Positions 907 to 6,865 of a DNA stretch of 64,000 bases are shown in pieces. How positions within the stretch are numbered: position 1 is the stretch's first letter; every line of letters begins with the position of its first letter. Under the pieces are notes generated by a model that ran no database searches, was not told where the DNA came from, and saw nothing but the letters and a program-made list of their open reading frames with translations. Source of the stretch: Escherichia coli (GTDB taxonomy: Bacteria; Pseudomonadota; Gammaproteobacteria; Enterobacterales; Enterobacteriaceae); NCBI RefSeq assembly GCF_044324785.1, contig NZ_CP172127.1, one strand, 5' to 3'. A program made the translations under genes and the position numbers.

Positions 907-1242
907 AAGTTTCCCTCTAACCGACATTAAAATTGATGCGTAATTATTTGTTTCGCCTTAAAGAAATGCAAACAACTTCCATCAAAAAAGTGACAAAGGA
1001 AGCATCAAATGTTTTAAGTATCAATATATCAAATCAGATTTAGCGTAAATAATAGTCTCCAAAATGCGGTAAAGCACATAGAACTCCGAACACTACGTTC
1101 GGGCTTCGCACGTTCAAACCCGTTTTCGGTATCATAATCAGCATCTGTCGCCATTGTGCGAAGAATAAAAAATGACCAAAACGTTGAAAGGAACTGAGAA
1201 TACGTTAAGAGAAGAATTAAATTAATGTATCAGCAAGTAGTG

Positions 1243-2142
1243 CTAAACAGCACCTTTATACTTCAGCCTATCTATAAATAATGAGAATGCCGAGCCAGCA
1301 TGTCGACGGTGTGGATAGTACAGGTGATAACCGGGTAAATCTGGTGTGAATTTATCCAAAACACGTATCAGTTTTTTTTCTTTAATAGCCCGCTCAACCT
1401 GATCATAAGGTAGATACGCCAACCCATGCCCATCAATTGCAGCATCAATGATCAGGTCTATCGTATTCAGTAAAAGCTGACCTTCCATGCGAACACGAAC
1501 TTCACGTCCACCGCGTATTAATCTCCAGCGATTTGCTGTACCCGATGTGGGAAGATACAAATTAATTGCCTGATGATCTATTAATTGTGACACTGACGTT
1601 GGAGCACTTCGACGAGAAAAATAATCCGGTGAGCCAACAATAGCCATTGGTATATCTGGCCCGATTCGAATGGCGATCATATCTTTATCCATCTCCCCAC
1701 CCAGACGGACGCCTGCATCAAAACGTTCAGAAACGACATCGGTCAAACCATAATCAATGGTAAGCTGGATATCAATTTCAGGATGCGATTTCAGGAATGT
1801 GCGCATAGCTGGTAACAATATCGTTTTTGCTGCATGTTCTACAGTAGTAATACGTATTGTCCCGGATGGGCGGTTCTGCAGATCGCTCAGGGATGTCAGG
1901 GCAGAATCTATGTCATGCAACATAGGGCCAAGAACAGACAAAAGATGCTCGCCCGCTTCAGTGGGTACAACGCTGCGCGTGGTTCGCGTCAGAAGCCGCA
2001 ATCCTAATCGTTCTTCTATACGGCGCACTATCTGGCTTAAAGCTGACTGCGCCATGCTCAGGCGGGCTGCTGCGCGAGTGAAGCTACGCTCCTCTGCAAC
2101 GACGACAAACGCCATCAGATCAGCGATTTCTTCACGCTTCAT
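1243..2142 (-). CDS. pgrR: LysR-family transcriptional regulator (PgrR/YcjZ)
   Basis: 299 aa; N-terminal helix-turn-helix (SFTRAAARLSMAQSALSQIVRRIEERLG) typical of LysR regulators; divergent from the ycjY operon. Confidence 0.85.
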   Translation of the reverse strand: MKREEIADLMAFVVVAEERSFTRAAARLSMAQSALSQIVRRIEERLGLRLLTRTTRSVVPTEAGEHLLSVLGPMLHDIDSALTSLSDLQNRPSGTIRITTVEHAAKTILLPAMRTFLKSHPEIDIQLTIDYGLTDVVSERFDAGVRLGGEMDKDMIAIRIGPDIPMAIVGSPDYFSRRSAPTSVSQLIDHQAINLYLPTSGTANRWRLIRGGREVRVRMEGQLLLNTIDLIIDAAIDGHGLAYLPYDQVERAIKEKKLIRVLDKFTPDLPGYHLYYPHRRHAGSAFSLFIDRLKYKGAV

Positions 2143-2163
2143 TCAGTATCTCCATACAATCTA

Positions 2164-2210
2164 TTAATCATTTAAATGATAGGTCTAATCATGATTTTGG
2201 GTCTAATCAA
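2164..2210. promoter_or_regulatory. Cluster of palindromes and direct repeats in the pgrR/ycjY divergent intergenic region; candidate LysR-type operator
   Basis: Perfect palindrome ATCATTTAAATGAT (2167-2180), palindrome AATCATGATT (2187-2196), and direct repeat GGTCTAATCA at 2182-2191 and 2200-2209. Confidence 0.4.
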
Positions 2211-2267
2211 CTTAATGATCAATATCTATAGTGATATCACCAACCGTCAAAACGAACCGACAACTCC

Positions 2268-3200
2268 ATGAGGAACGGAATGATGAATAATAAAGTCAGC
2301 TTCACTAACAGCAATAATCCAACCATCTCTTTGTCTGCAGTGATCTATTTCCCTCCAAAATTTGATGAAACCCGTCAGTATCCGGCAATTGTGGTATCTC
2401 ACCCAGGTGGGGGCGTTAAAGAGCAAACGGCCGGAACCTATGCCGAAAAACTGGCGGAAAAGGGATTTGTCACTATTGCTTATGACGCATCTTATCAAGG
2501 TGAAAGCGGCGGCGAGCCGCGTCAGTTAGAAAACCCATACATTCGTACTGAAGACGTCAGTGCCGTGATTGATTACCTGACAACGCTTTCTTATGTCGAC
2601 AATACCCGAATTGGTGCGATGGGAATTTGTGCCGGTGCAGGATATACAGCCAATGCTGCAATTCAGGATCGCCGCATCAAGGCCATCGGTACTGTTAGTG
2701 CGGTCAATATTGGTTCGATGTTCCGTAATGGTTGGGAAAACAATGTGAAATCTATTGATGCCCTACCATACGTTGACGCGGGTTCAAACGCCCGAACCAG
2801 CGATATTAGCAGCGGAGAATACGCCACTATGCCACTGGCACCAATGAAGGAGTCCGATGCGCCGAACGAAGAACTGCGTCAGGCCTGGGAGTATTACCAC
2901 ACCCCTCGCGCGCAGTATCCAACAGCACCGGGTTACGCTACTTTGCGCAGCCTTAACCAGATTATTACCTATGATGCTTACCATATGGCGGAAGTGTACC
3001 TGACTCAGCCGATACAGATTGTGGCGGGCAGCCAGGCAGGGAGCAAATGGATGAGTGACGACCTGTACGATCGAGCATCAAGCCAGGATAAACGCTATCA
3101 CATTGTTGAAGGCGCAAACCATATGGATCTTTATGACGGCAAAGCCTATGTGGCTGAAGCAATTTCAGTATTAGCTCCGTTCTTTGAGGAAACTCTGTAA
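2268..3200 (+). CDS. ycjY: Alpha/beta-fold hydrolase with Cys in the nucleophile elbow (GICAGAG), YcjY-like
   Basis: 310 aa; G-x-C-x-G nucleophile elbow; first gene of the operon divergent from pgrR. Confidence 0.75.
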   Translation: MRNGMMNNKVSFTNSNNPTISLSAVIYFPPKFDETRQYPAIVVSHPGGGVKEQTAGTYAEKLAEKGFVTIAYDASYQGESGGEPRQLENPYIRTEDVSAVIDYLTTLSYVDNTRIGAMGICAGAGYTANAAIQDRRIKAIGTVSAVNIGSMFRNGWENNVKSIDALPYVDAGSNARTSDISSGEYATMPLAPMKESDAPNEELRQAWEYYHTPRAQYPTAPGYATLRSLNQIITYDAYHMAEVYLTQPIQIVAGSQAGSKWMSDDLYDRASSQDKRYHIVEGANHMDLYDGKAYVAEAISVLAPFFEETL

Positions 3201-4132
3201 TGAAACATATTCAAATCCGCAATAGTGATATGGCCTGGCATATTGCTGCCAATATTCAGTTTCCACCAAATTTTGATGAGTCAAAACAGTATCCGGCGAT
3301 TATCAGCGTCCATCCTTTTGGCAGTTGTAAGGAGCAGACGTCTGGCAATATCTATGGCAAGGCATTGGCTGAAAAAGGCTATGTCGTTCTCGCTTATGAC
3401 GCCAGTTTCCAGGGAGAATCTGGTGGGGAGCCTCGTTGGATAGAAGATCCGACACAGCGCGTTGAGGATATTAGCCGTGTTATCGATTATGCAGTAACTC
3501 TGCCATATGTTGATGCTGAACGCATTGGCGTGCTGGGTGTGTGTGGGGGGGGTGGCTATGCCATTAATGCCGCGCTGACAGAAAAACGAATTAAAGCTGT
3601 AGTGAGTATTACGGGTGTTAATATCGGGCGTCTTTTTCGAGAAGGTTTCAGCAATTACGATCCGATTGGCGCATTGAATGCAATGGCGTCGCAACGAACC
3701 AAAGAGGCTCGTGGTGGAGAATTACAGATCAACGAATTACTTCCCGCCAGCCTGGATGCAGCAAAAGCCCATGGACTGACCGAACGCGATGTTTATGAAG
3801 CAACTGACTACTATAAAACACCACGCGGGCAACAACCGGGAGGTGCGACAAAAATGTTGTTCTCACATGCACAGAAAACGCTGGCCTGGGATGCCTTCGC
3901 ATTTACTGAAGTGTTACTGACTCAGCCGGTGATGGTAGTAGTTGGTGAAAAAGTCGGTGCCTTCGGTGCTTATCGTGATGGACTGGAAGTCTATGGCCGG
4001 GCGATGGTTTCGCAGGATCGTCAGTTAGTTTCGTTACCCGATTTCTCACATTATGAACTGTATGACAAACCGGAAGCAGTTCAGGAGGCGCTGGAAAAAG
4101 TTATTCCTTTTTTCAACACCCATCTGGGATAA
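3200..4132 (+). CDS. Tandem paralog of ycjY: alpha/beta hydrolase with Cys nucleophile (GVCGGGG)
   Basis: 310 aa, roughly 45% identical to the upstream gene by eye; stop/start overlap TAATG at 3198-3202 suggests translational coupling. Likely the intact form of the locus I recall as a pseudogene (ymjD) in K-12. Confidence 0.7.
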   Translation: MKHIQIRNSDMAWHIAANIQFPPNFDESKQYPAIISVHPFGSCKEQTSGNIYGKALAEKGYVVLAYDASFQGESGGEPRWIEDPTQRVEDISRVIDYAVTLPYVDAERIGVLGVCGGGGYAINAALTEKRIKAVVSITGVNIGRLFREGFSNYDPIGALNAMASQRTKEARGGELQINELLPASLDAAKAHGLTERDVYEATDYYKTPRGQQPGGATKMLFSHAQKTLAWDAFAFTEVLLTQPVMVVVGEKVGAFGAYRDGLEVYGRAMVSQDRQLVSLPDFSHYELYDKPEAVQEALEKVIPFFNTHLG

Positions 4133-4137
4133 GTTTC

Positions 4138-4788
4138 ATGAGAAATATTATGAAAAAAGTACTCATTCTTGGTGCTGGCGGTCAGATAGCCCGCCATGTG
4201 ATTAATCAACTGGCAGATAAACAAACCATTAAACAAACTTTATTTGCTCGTCAGCCAGCAAAAATACACAAACCCTATCCAACTAATAGCCAGATTATTA
4301 TGGGGGATGTACTGAATCATGCAGCACTGAAGCAGGCCATGCAGGGACAGGATGTTGTGTATGCCAACCTTACGGGGGAAGATTTAGATATTCAGGCAAA
4401 TTCAGTGATCGCTGCGATGAAAGCCTGTGATGTTAAACGTCTGATCTTTGTTCTTTCCCTCGGTATTTATGATGAAGTTCCAGGAAAATTTGGCGAATGG
4501 AATAATGCAGTTATTGGTGAACCCCTAAAACCATTCCGCAGGGCTGCGGATGCAATTGAGGCTTCTGGACTGGAATATACAATTCTTCGCCCTGCCTGGC
4601 TGACTGATGAAGATATTATTGATTATGAGCTTACCTCACGCAATGAACCATTCAAAGGTACGATCGTATCACGTAAGAGTGTCGCCGCATTAATTACAGA
4701 TATCATCGATAAACCTGAGAAACACATTGGTGAGAATATAGGCATCAATCAACCCGGGACTGATGGCGATAAACCCTTCTTCATGTAA
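4138..4788 (+). CDS. NAD(P)-binding Rossmann protein (NmrA/atypical-SDR-like)
   Basis: 216 aa; N-terminal VLILGAGGQIARH dinucleotide-binding motif. Probably the intact counterpart of the K-12 pseudogene ymjC. Confidence 0.65.
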   Translation: MRNIMKKVLILGAGGQIARHVINQLADKQTIKQTLFARQPAKIHKPYPTNSQIIMGDVLNHAALKQAMQGQDVVYANLTGEDLDIQANSVIAAMKACDVKRLIFVLSLGIYDEVPGKFGEWNNAVIGEPLKPFRRAADAIEASGLEYTILRPAWLTDEDIIDYELTSRNEPFKGTIVSRKSVAALITDIIDKPEKHIGENIGINQPGTDGDKPFFM

Positions 4789-5078
4789 ATCAATTATATA
4801 GCTACCATCGTACTGTACTATGTGCAGTACGATTTATTAAACTTATTAAGGTGAACTGATCAATCAGATGCGATTAACATGTGTAGAACCAGTAAGAATA
4901 AAATACGCCATGTATATAACATTACGACAATTCTAATATCTGCACATCAATGAAAATGCAAACAACTTCTGGCAAAAAAGTGATACAAGATCGATGACAT
5001 AGCGTTGAAGAAAAGGATTTGATAATCCGCAAAATTTGCACAACACTGCCTGTAATACTTCCTGAACCAGAGACGATC

Positions 5079-5807
5079 ATGACCGTAACCCGCCCACGCG
5101 CCGAACGCGGCGCATTTCCGCCCGGAACAGAACATTACGGACGTTCATTATTGGGCGCGCCGTTAATCTGGTTTCCTGCCCCTGCAGCCAGCCGCGAAAG
5201 TGGTTTGATTCTGGCTGGCACTCACGGTGATGAAAACTCTTCGGTCGTCACGCTCTCCTGTGCTCTGCGGACGTTGACACCTTCTTTGCGCCGTCATCAT
5301 GTGGTGCTGTGTGTAAATCCTGACGGCTGCCAGTTGGGGTTACGGGCCAATGCTAATGGTGTGGATTTAAACAGAAACTTTCCGGCGGCGAACTGGAAGG
5401 AAGGTGAAACCGTTTATCGCTGGAACAGCGCCGCTGAAGAACGTGATGTCGTTTTACTGACAGGTGACAAACCTGGCTCCGAACCTGAAACCCAGGCGCT
5501 GTGCCAGCTTATACACCGCATTCAACCTGCCTGGGTGGTCTCATTCCACGATCCACTGGCCTGTATTGAAGATCCCAGACACAGCGAATTAGGCGAATGG
5601 CTAGCCCAGGCGTTTGAATTGCCTCTGGTAACCAGCGTCGGTTATGAAACACCTGGCTCTTTCGGTAGTTGGTGTGCGGATCTCAACCTGCATTGCATAA
5701 CCGCAGAGTTTCCGCCCATCTCCTCCGACGAAGCCAGCGAAAAATATCTCTTTGCGATGGCAAACTTGCTGCGCTGGCATCCTAAAGATGCAATTCGCCC
5801 GTTGTGA
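5079..5807 (+). CDS. mpaA: Murein peptide amidase A (gamma-D-Glu-Dap amidase)
   Basis: 242 aa from the internal ATG at 5079 (MTVTRPRAERG...); the ORF-track start at 5019 is an upstream in-frame extension. Confidence 0.85.
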   Translation: MTVTRPRAERGAFPPGTEHYGRSLLGAPLIWFPAPAASRESGLILAGTHGDENSSVVTLSCALRTLTPSLRRHHVVLCVNPDGCQLGLRANANGVDLNRNFPAANWKEGETVYRWNSAAEERDVVLLTGDKPGSEPETQALCQLIHRIQPAWVVSFHDPLACIEDPRHSELGEWLAQAFELPLVTSVGYETPGSFGSWCADLNLHCITAEFPPISSDEASEKYLFAMANLLRWHPKDAIRPL

Positions 5808-6747: not shown

Positions 6748-6865
6748 CTTTACTCCTTGTTGTCGCAGTGGTCTGCGGATTAAGCGCAAATAGCGTTTGC
6801 TGTGTTATTGACAGTTAGCATAAACTAGGTGTGACGTTAACTATATGTAAACAGGAAAGATAATC

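Follow-up and report, generated by a model that had tools for sequence, protein, structure and literature searches.

The organization of LysR-type operators was reviewed in 2024: a highly symmetric regulatory site is located close to -65, activation site 1, which is weaker and extends over the -35/-10 region, is occupied without inducer, and activation site 2, which lies between the regulatory site and activation site 1, is occupied with inducer; this layout is accompanied by negative autoregulation (PMC11495319). Classic operators of this type, such as those of the BenM, DntR and OccR promoters, are found in a divergent spacer beside the negatively autoregulated regulator gene, and the same holds true for the repeat array described here, which is located between the E. 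coli genes pgrR and ycjY. With ycjY transcription starting at the predicted position, a symmetric anchor would, as in the classic operators, lie approximately 65 bp upstream of the start, a weaker site would cover the predicted -35 region and a third position would be found between the two. The centres of sites 1 and 2 of the PgrR array are 39 bp apart and the distance from site 1 to the middle position is 18 bp; the corresponding spacings of BenM are about 42 and 21 bp. Unlike the classic operators, which contain a 15-bp ATAC-N7-GTAT dyad (T-N11-A), the PgrR array has an even 14-bp ATCA-N6-TGAT dyad (T-N10-A); furthermore, PgrR has so far been described only as a repressor, and the sites reported here are predicted. 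The symmetric frame gives T2168-N10-A2179 instead of the canonical T-N11-A core, and T-N11-A pairs are present at 2162/2174 and 2164/2176, off-centre to the dyad. Judged from its location, its symmetry and the autoregulation reported for pgrR, the array has the layout and, most probably, the function of a LysR-type operator; the T-N10-A spacing departs from the strict T-N11-A motif and lowers membership in that motif class, not the functional analogy. A similar layout is known from the AmpR/ampC system, in which a LysR regulator and its target are likewise divergent and share an operator within a short spacer, and which is linked to peptidoglycan turnover. However, apart from their common family the two systems are unrelated in sequence, and AmpR senses peptidoglycan fragments, whereas the peptidoglycan link of PgrR appears to reflect an E. 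coli-specific genomic neighbourhood.

The primary study on PgrR (YcjZ) is reportedly that of Shimada, Yamazaki and Ishihama (2013, Genes Cells). In tabulated genomic SELEX data, ycjY/ycjZ appears as a target of PgrR, with ycjY-ymjDC-mpaA, ycjG and ycjXF-tyrR given as the regulon (PMC5934670). In the DAP-seq data recorded by the PPTP-seq study, the PgrR peak at the pgrR promoter reached 5632-fold, with LacI at lacZYA reaching 4413-fold (PMC10505187, Suppl. Data 6). CRISPRi knock-down of pgrR increased the activity of the pgrR promoter by log2 0.97 in PPTP-seq reporters, and negative autoregulation was confirmed by titration in a tunable-PgrR strain; the ycjY promoter responded only weakly to the knock-down, with log2 values of 0.60, 0.28 and 0.34, which were not called significant (PMC10505187) and which count against a shared operator. 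RegulonDB lists repression of ycjY-ymjDC-mpaA by PgrR, and the listed PgrR interactions are all negative (via the data of PMC10505187). Thus, binding of PgrR to the spacer in vitro and negative autoregulation of pgrR in vivo are already known, with SELEX and DAP-seq placing the protein on the spacer at spacer resolution only. The array studied here shares with the published target at ycjY/ycjZ the locus, the regulator, the K-12 sequence, the self-repression and the listing of the ycjY operon as repressed. The accessible sources resolve no more than the spacer; the definition of half-sites, the base-level anatomy, the geometry of two sites, the overlap with promoters and the conservation across phyla may be new. 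The acronym 'PGRR' in PMC12710356 belongs to an unrelated database.

Inputs besides PgrR may act on the spacer as well. Knock-down of ulaR raised the activity of the ycjY promoter by log2 2.19 in LB, UlaR gave a 57.5-fold DAP-seq peak, and knock-down of hns raised the ycjY promoter by log2 0.88 (PMC10505187). Holoenzymes containing RpoD, RpoE or RpoH produced SELEX peaks on the spacer (PMC3946193, PMC5493296), and the hexamers assigned in silico are TAGACC-18-TATCAT for pgrR, listed under the RpoD peak, and ATGATA-19-TCTAAT for ycjY (Shimada 2014, PMC3946193).

Genes and repeats of the pgrR/ycjY spacer

All coordinates refer to the window, the whole 64-kb stretch of DNA that was analysed. In line with the earlier note, which had placed a LysR regulator divergent from ycjY, annotation gives the following genes:

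1243-2142, minus strand: pgrR (ycjZ), LysR-family regulator of 299 aa (open reading frame and RefSeq annotation of a 99.8%-identical genome)
2280-3200, plus strand: ycjY, alpha/beta hydrolase, first gene of the target operon (RefSeq, Pfam alpha/beta-hydrolase families, NCBIfam)
3200-4132: second alpha/beta hydrolase, downstream of ycjY (RefSeq)
4150-4788: SDR oxidoreductase gene (RefSeq)
5079-5807: mpaA, last listed gene of the target operon (RefSeq)

In the 99.8%-identical genome, RefSeq names the product of 1243-2142 'DNA-binding transcriptional regulator PgrR', and its NCBIfam matches are to LysR families only. According to RefSeq, ycjG follows mpaA, and mppA is located on the far side of pgrR. 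The two back-to-back genes are separated by a spacer of 137 bp (2143-2279) with a GC content of 34%. The region 1200-3300 was matched in 5242 of 5426 complete E. coli genomes at 95-100% identity, and K-12 MG1655 agrees with the window without a mismatch over 2157-2247, so that the experiments performed in K-12 apply directly to the array.

Some further observations concern the operon itself. The second hydrolase gene and the SDR gene are intact in the window (3200-4788), and K-12 MG1655 (locus L015, 6681-6934) carries short remnants, ymjD and ymjC, between ycjY and mpaA. A further in-frame ATG is found at 2268, ahead of the annotated start of ycjY, where it overlaps the ribosome-binding region with the conserved sequence ATGAGGAAC; RefSeq takes 2280 as the start, where ATGATGAA is kept in relatives. 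In an overexpression screen, ycjY clones led to filamentation (PMC3614548), which would make tight repression of the ycjY promoter useful.

The spacer contains the following repeats, to which no strand is assigned:

2167-2180: ATCATTTAAATGAT, perfect 14-bp palindrome, present once in the window (direct reading, repeat and pattern search)
2187-2196: AATCATGATT, perfect 10-bp palindrome (direct reading, repeat and pattern search)
2182-2191 and 2200-2209: GGTCTAATCA, 10-bp direct repeat, 18 bp apart, the sole two copies in the window
2204-2219: TAATCAACTTAATGAT, imperfect second dyad, 81% identical to 2165-2180 and 39 bp away from it
2231-2240: GTGATATCAC, perfect 10-bp palindrome over the predicted ycjY start, with TGAT/ATCA halves in the opposite arrangement

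The perfect 14-bp palindrome of the earlier note is therefore ATCATTTAAATGAT. Its second palindrome, AATCATGATT, exists as well, but is not conserved, even within E. coli, and the duplicated sequence corresponds to GGTCTAATCA, which is indeed found twice, although the first copy is only moderately conserved. The half-sites, which had been given as TAATCA/TGATTA, have to be restated: TAATCA is present in three copies, all in the same orientation (2165, 2186 and 2204), whereas TGATTA does not occur in the array, and the inverted halves are ATCA/TGAT only. The range of 2164-2210 contains the elements named in the earlier note to within a few bases; however, the array extends further to the right with TAATCAACTTAATGAT and GTGATATCAC.

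The repeats exceed what the composition of the spacer would produce. In 20,000 dinucleotide-preserving shuffles of the spacer, the probability of a palindrome of at least 14 bp was 0.013 and that of at least nine ATCA/TGAT tetramers 0.004; in 4,000 shuffles, a direct repeat of at least 10 bp had a probability of 0.012. Together with the conservation described below, the shuffles rule out pure chance as the origin of the repeats. ATCA-N6-TGAT is found six times in the window compared with an expectation of 1.3, and two of the six copies lie within the array. The site-1 dyad is unique within the window and single-copy in E. coli genomes. A terminal repeat of a mobile element was rejected on the grounds that the sequence is single-copy and fixed in position.

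Conservation of the array in related loci

A scan of one genome per species identified the divergent pgrR-ycjY pair in nine enterobacterial lineages (Citrobacter, Kluyvera, Pseudocitrobacter, Shimwellia, three Serratia and two metagenome bins), with PgrR identities of 85-88%. The protein homologues, all at least 87% identical among the 120 matches listed, were complemented by a plasmid collection, which supplied intermediate orthologues, and the same arrangement of regulator and target was found at at least 13 other loci. At third codon positions, the pgrR and ycjY genes of the relatives share only 42-58% identity with the window; silent sites are thus close to saturated. Identity of the spacer to the window across the nine lineages, which are, like the plasmid relatives, partly non-independent since the cassette moves horizontally, is distributed as follows:

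2143-2162, pgrR leader side: 23%
2163-2181, site 1: 99.4%
2182-2199, middle segment: 82%
2200-2222, site 2: 90%
2233-2265, ycjY leader: 59%

The enterobacterial alignment contains no indels anywhere in 2163-2232, and the heptamer CTATAGT (2226-2232) is invariant in all ten sequences, with variable flanks. Constraint within the array is lowest in the middle segment, where only ATT (2194-2196) is kept in all lineages. At the position of AATCATGATT, most relatives read AATCATTATT and have lost the TGAT half; judging from this comparison, AATCATGATT is probably dispensable, which may be new. Within E. coli, single-nucleotide polymorphisms were seen at 2193 (the G2193A allele) and 2198, and the sampled polymorphisms avoid sites 1 and 2. 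A 30-mer covering site 1 (2160-2189) occurs unchanged in 5192 of 5222 E. coli genomes (99.4%), and one covering site 2 (2199-2228) in 5147 of 5220 (98.6%); a 30-mer of the ycjY leader (5'-UTR) is identical in 163 of 5215 (3%). The GTGATATCAC palindrome is kept in E. coli and Serratia PL17 and partly in two other lineages, and is not conserved in the enteric-plasmid type of spacer; its relevance is uncertain. The earlier note had named loss of the repeats in relatives as evidence against an operator. The footprinting it had asked for instead reveals the array as a sharp footprint whose repeats are not lost, and this objection falls away. The operator overlaps putative promoter hexamers, however, and conservation alone cannot separate the two functions.

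The comparison can be extended to the alpha-proteobacteria, whose spacers, when anchored on the dyad, align with that of E. coli without gaps:

E. coli: ATCATTTAAATGATAGGTCTAATCATGATTTTGGGTCTAATCAACTTAATGATCAATATCTATAGT
R. tropici: ATCATCTCAATGATAGGCCTAATAAGAATTACCCGTCTAATCCACTCAATCTTTTTGGCCTAGATT
A. fabrum: ATCACCTCAGTGATAAGGCCAAGCGTAATTATCCCTCTAATCGAGGCAATTGTTTTGTCCTAGATT

Among ten lineages, ATCA is kept in all and TGAT in nine, and the central six nucleotides occur in six forms; the centres include TTTAAA, TCTCAA, CCTCAG and CTCCAG, and the ATCA and TGATA halves are retained around them. The heptamer TCTAATC is found exactly 35 nt past the site-1 ATCA in E. coli, Serratia, Rhizobium, Agrobacterium fabrum and Kozakia. 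Exactly 25 nt past TCTAATC follows a -10-like hexamer, which reads TATAGT in E. coli and TAGATT in Rhizobium tropici and Agrobacterium fabrum; Kozakia has CTACCA at this position. The spacer of Agrobacterium pusense, whose regulator is 61% identical, is rearranged; here too, two ATCA...TGATAG dyads are present. The compared regulators are nearly identical in their winged-helix region. As a negative control, the upstream regions of three ycjY orthologues from Burkholderia and Pseudoalteromonas (70-74% identical) that have no adjacent LysR gene were inspected, and they contain neither ATCA-N5-7-TGAT nor TCTAATC. Symmetric halves that are kept around a free centre and that travel together with the regulator are, at the level of these alignments, the signature expected of a site for a dimeric protein.

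Proposed operator, promoters and competing explanations

Taken together, the array is most probably a PgrR operator common to the back-to-back promoters of pgrR and ycjY. The proposal of the earlier note that the repeats form an autoregulatory and target operator is supported by the published binding and autoregulation, the phylogenetic footprint and the LysR geometry. From the sequence, we infer the bases that PgrR would contact, the positions of the promoters and a shift of PgrR driven by an inducer. The proposed parts are as follows:

2165-2183, no strand: site 1, proposed regulatory (anchor) site, TAATCATTTAAATGATAGG; core dyad ATCA-N6-TGAT at 2167-2180, centre 2173/2174
2182-2199, no strand: middle segment with the first GGTCTAATCA copy, AATCATGATT and a T-tract; candidate second activation site or bending spacer
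2200-2222, no strand: site 2, proposed activation site 1, GGTCTAATCAACTTAATGATCAA; dyad ATCA-N6-TGAT at 2206-2219, centre 2212.5, overlapping both -35 regions
2204-2232, plus strand: predicted ycjY promoter with a weak -35 region, TAATCA (2204-2209), a 17-nt spacer and the -10 region TATAGT (2227-2232)
2176-2205, minus strand: candidate pgrR promoter A with the -35 region TAGACC (2205 to 2200), an 18-nt spacer and the -10 region TATCAT (2181 to 2176)
2194-2222, minus strand: candidate pgrR promoter B with the -35 region TTGATC (2222 to 2217), a 17-nt spacer and the -10 region CAAAAT (2199 to 2194)

The invariant TATAGT predicts a ycjY start near 2239. Relative to this position, the centre of site 1 would fall at -65.5, that of the middle palindrome at -47.5 and that of site 2 at -26.5. 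The predicted -35 hexamer of ycjY, TAATCA, is a poor one (3/6), and alpha- and gamma-proteobacteria alike have kept it so. Of the two candidates for pgrR, promoter A scores 9/12 in a consensus scan and has its -10 region inside site 1; it is implausible in the alpha-proteobacterial orthologues, where the start codon of the regulator abuts site 1. Promoter B would place site 1 in the transcribed leader, and in the columns of its -10 region the alpha-proteobacterial orthologues have GATAAT or GGTAAT. A search for transcription start sites in Cappable-seq and SMRT-Cappable-seq supplements gave no entry here, either by coordinate or by gene. A Dam methylation site, GATC, is located at 2217-2220 inside site 2 (TGATCA); it is probably not essential, as the G is replaced by A in several relatives, and the polymorphic G was also the reason to reject Dam-dependent control via this site.

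In the proposed mechanism, a PgrR dimer would anchor on the symmetric site 1 (ATCA-N6-TGATA, 2167-2181), and a second dimer of the same tetramer would bind the less symmetric site 2 (TCTAATCA-N4-AATGAT, 2202-2219), which covers the weak -35 region of ycjY and the -35 region of pgrR. With both sites filled (approximately 55 bp, 2165-2219), RNA polymerase would be blocked in both directions, resulting in negative autoregulation and in repression of the ycjY-hydrolase-SDR-mpaA operon. A tetramer on sites 1 and 2 would cover both -35 regions and either the -10 region or the leader of pgrR, which would account for autorepression and repression of ycjY alike. By analogy with classic LysR regulators, an inducer might cause the second dimer to leave site 2 for the middle segment (2182-2199), and this shift would free the -35 region and possibly activate ycjY. 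Full expression of ycjY may need inducer-bound, repositioned PgrR, given that its conserved -35 region is poor and that derepression upon knock-down is weak. This sliding and activating component, which is drawn from the analogy, is less certain than the identity of the operator.

It is quite conceivable, though we would not call it probable, that PgrR acts as a simple repressor, with two dimers or one tetramer sitting statically on sites 1 and 2, the middle segment serving as a mere spacer and ycjY never being activated. K-12 annotation labels PgrR a repressor, its RegulonDB interactions are all negative, it has no known inducer, and conservation of the array is weakest in the middle segment, which is polymorphic within E. 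coli. However, the preservation of a poor ycjY -35 region across alpha- and gamma-proteobacteria is typical of activator-dependent promoters, the marginal derepression of ycjY upon pgrR knock-down is expected if full expression needs activated PgrR, and the classic LysR model predicts dual behaviour (PMC11495319). Much less likely is the explanation that the conserved blocks consist for the most part of overlapping elements of two divergent promoters recognized by sigma-70 and perhaps sigma-E, the repeats resulting from the use of the same hexamers in both directions. The holoenzyme SELEX peaks, the coincidence of TAGACC-18-TATCAT and TCTAAT with the repeats, and CTATAGT as an invariant -10-like island fit such elements, but about six conserved bases would suffice for a promoter, which does not explain an invariant block of 19 bp with perfect two-fold symmetry. 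Halves that are kept while the centre varies point to a dimeric protein rather than a -10 box, the alpha-proteobacterial site 1 abuts the start codon of the regulator and cannot be a -10 region, and the very strong DAP-seq peak of PgrR needs a specific site. Reading of the sequence also yields no convincing sigma-E motif (GGAACTT-16-TCTRA), and a sigma-E promoter was rejected, the nearest AACTT not being conserved.

It is very improbable that the dyads belong to another protein, such as Fur, UlaR or H-NS, and that PgrR binds elsewhere in the spacer. The Fur 7-1-7 consensus is TGATAATNATTATCA, and TGATAGGTCTAATCA (2177-2191) fits it at 10-11 of 14 positions; the effects of the ulaR and hns knock-downs, the UlaR peak and the AT-richness of the spacer could likewise be taken in favour of other proteins. 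However, the motif travels with the PgrR-type regulator to alpha-proteobacterial plasmids and is missing where the regulator is missing, and the spacer offers PgrR no other conserved dyad. The Fur-like match degrades in relatives and was judged to be a by-product of half-site similarity, and neither the IHF consensus (WATCAANNNNTTR) nor the ArcA box fits the sequence.

The PgrR operator proposed here is an ordinary, textbook-type LysR operator at a published binding locus, and it provides a definition that can be tested at the level of single bases, with half-sites to mutate and repeats to ignore, as well as predicted promoter positions for this regulator. The motif was also sought at other reported PgrR targets in the window, namely ycjG, ycjXF-tyrR and mppA, and the lack of a comparable one there does not fit the proposed operator. 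A position-weight scan of the upstream regions of mppA (907-1242) and mpaA (4789-5078), of ycjG/tpx (6748-6865) and further on gave no match above 12.8 bits, compared with 25.6 and 21.7 bits for the two sites of the array.

The four-gene cassette

The genes pgrR, ycjY, the second hydrolase and SDR (1243-4788 in the window; loci L016-L020) look like a mobile four-gene cassette. The unit of LysR regulator, two hydrolases and SDR is present on conjugative Klebsiella plasmids with 79% nucleotide identity and, at approximately 69% nucleotide identity, on plasmids of Agrobacterium, Rhizobium and Kozakia, where it is found beside IS21, ISNCY and integrase genes. Among the loci compared, only Escherichia has mppA and mpaA/ycjG flanking the cassette.

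It is tempting to speculate, although we consider this rather doubtful, that PgrR is the cognate, inducer-dependent regulator of this cassette and not primarily a repressor of peptidoglycan recycling, and that the cassette has spread among plasmids and chromosomes of alpha- and gamma-proteobacteria and landed between mppA and mpaA in Escherichia. ATCA-N6-TGATA, followed by TCTAATC 35 nt downstream and then by a -10 region, may in that case be the cassette's own operator. If this holds true, the weak -35 region predicts that PgrR activates ycjY in response to a small molecule, conceivably an ester or lactone on which the hydrolases act, and the 'peptidoglycan' regulon would be a by-product of read-through into mpaA. 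Conservation at the level of the cassette suggests that the term 'peptidoglycan recycling regulator' may name an E. coli-specific neighbourhood and not the ancestral function.

In the alpha-proteobacterial loci, the start codon of the regulator lies 2 nt from the dyad (L016, 2346-2465; L017, 2345-2480; L018, 2234-2326), and the variable dyad centre (CCTCAG, or CTGAGG in the direction of the regulator gene) also serves as the Shine-Dalgarno sequence of that gene.
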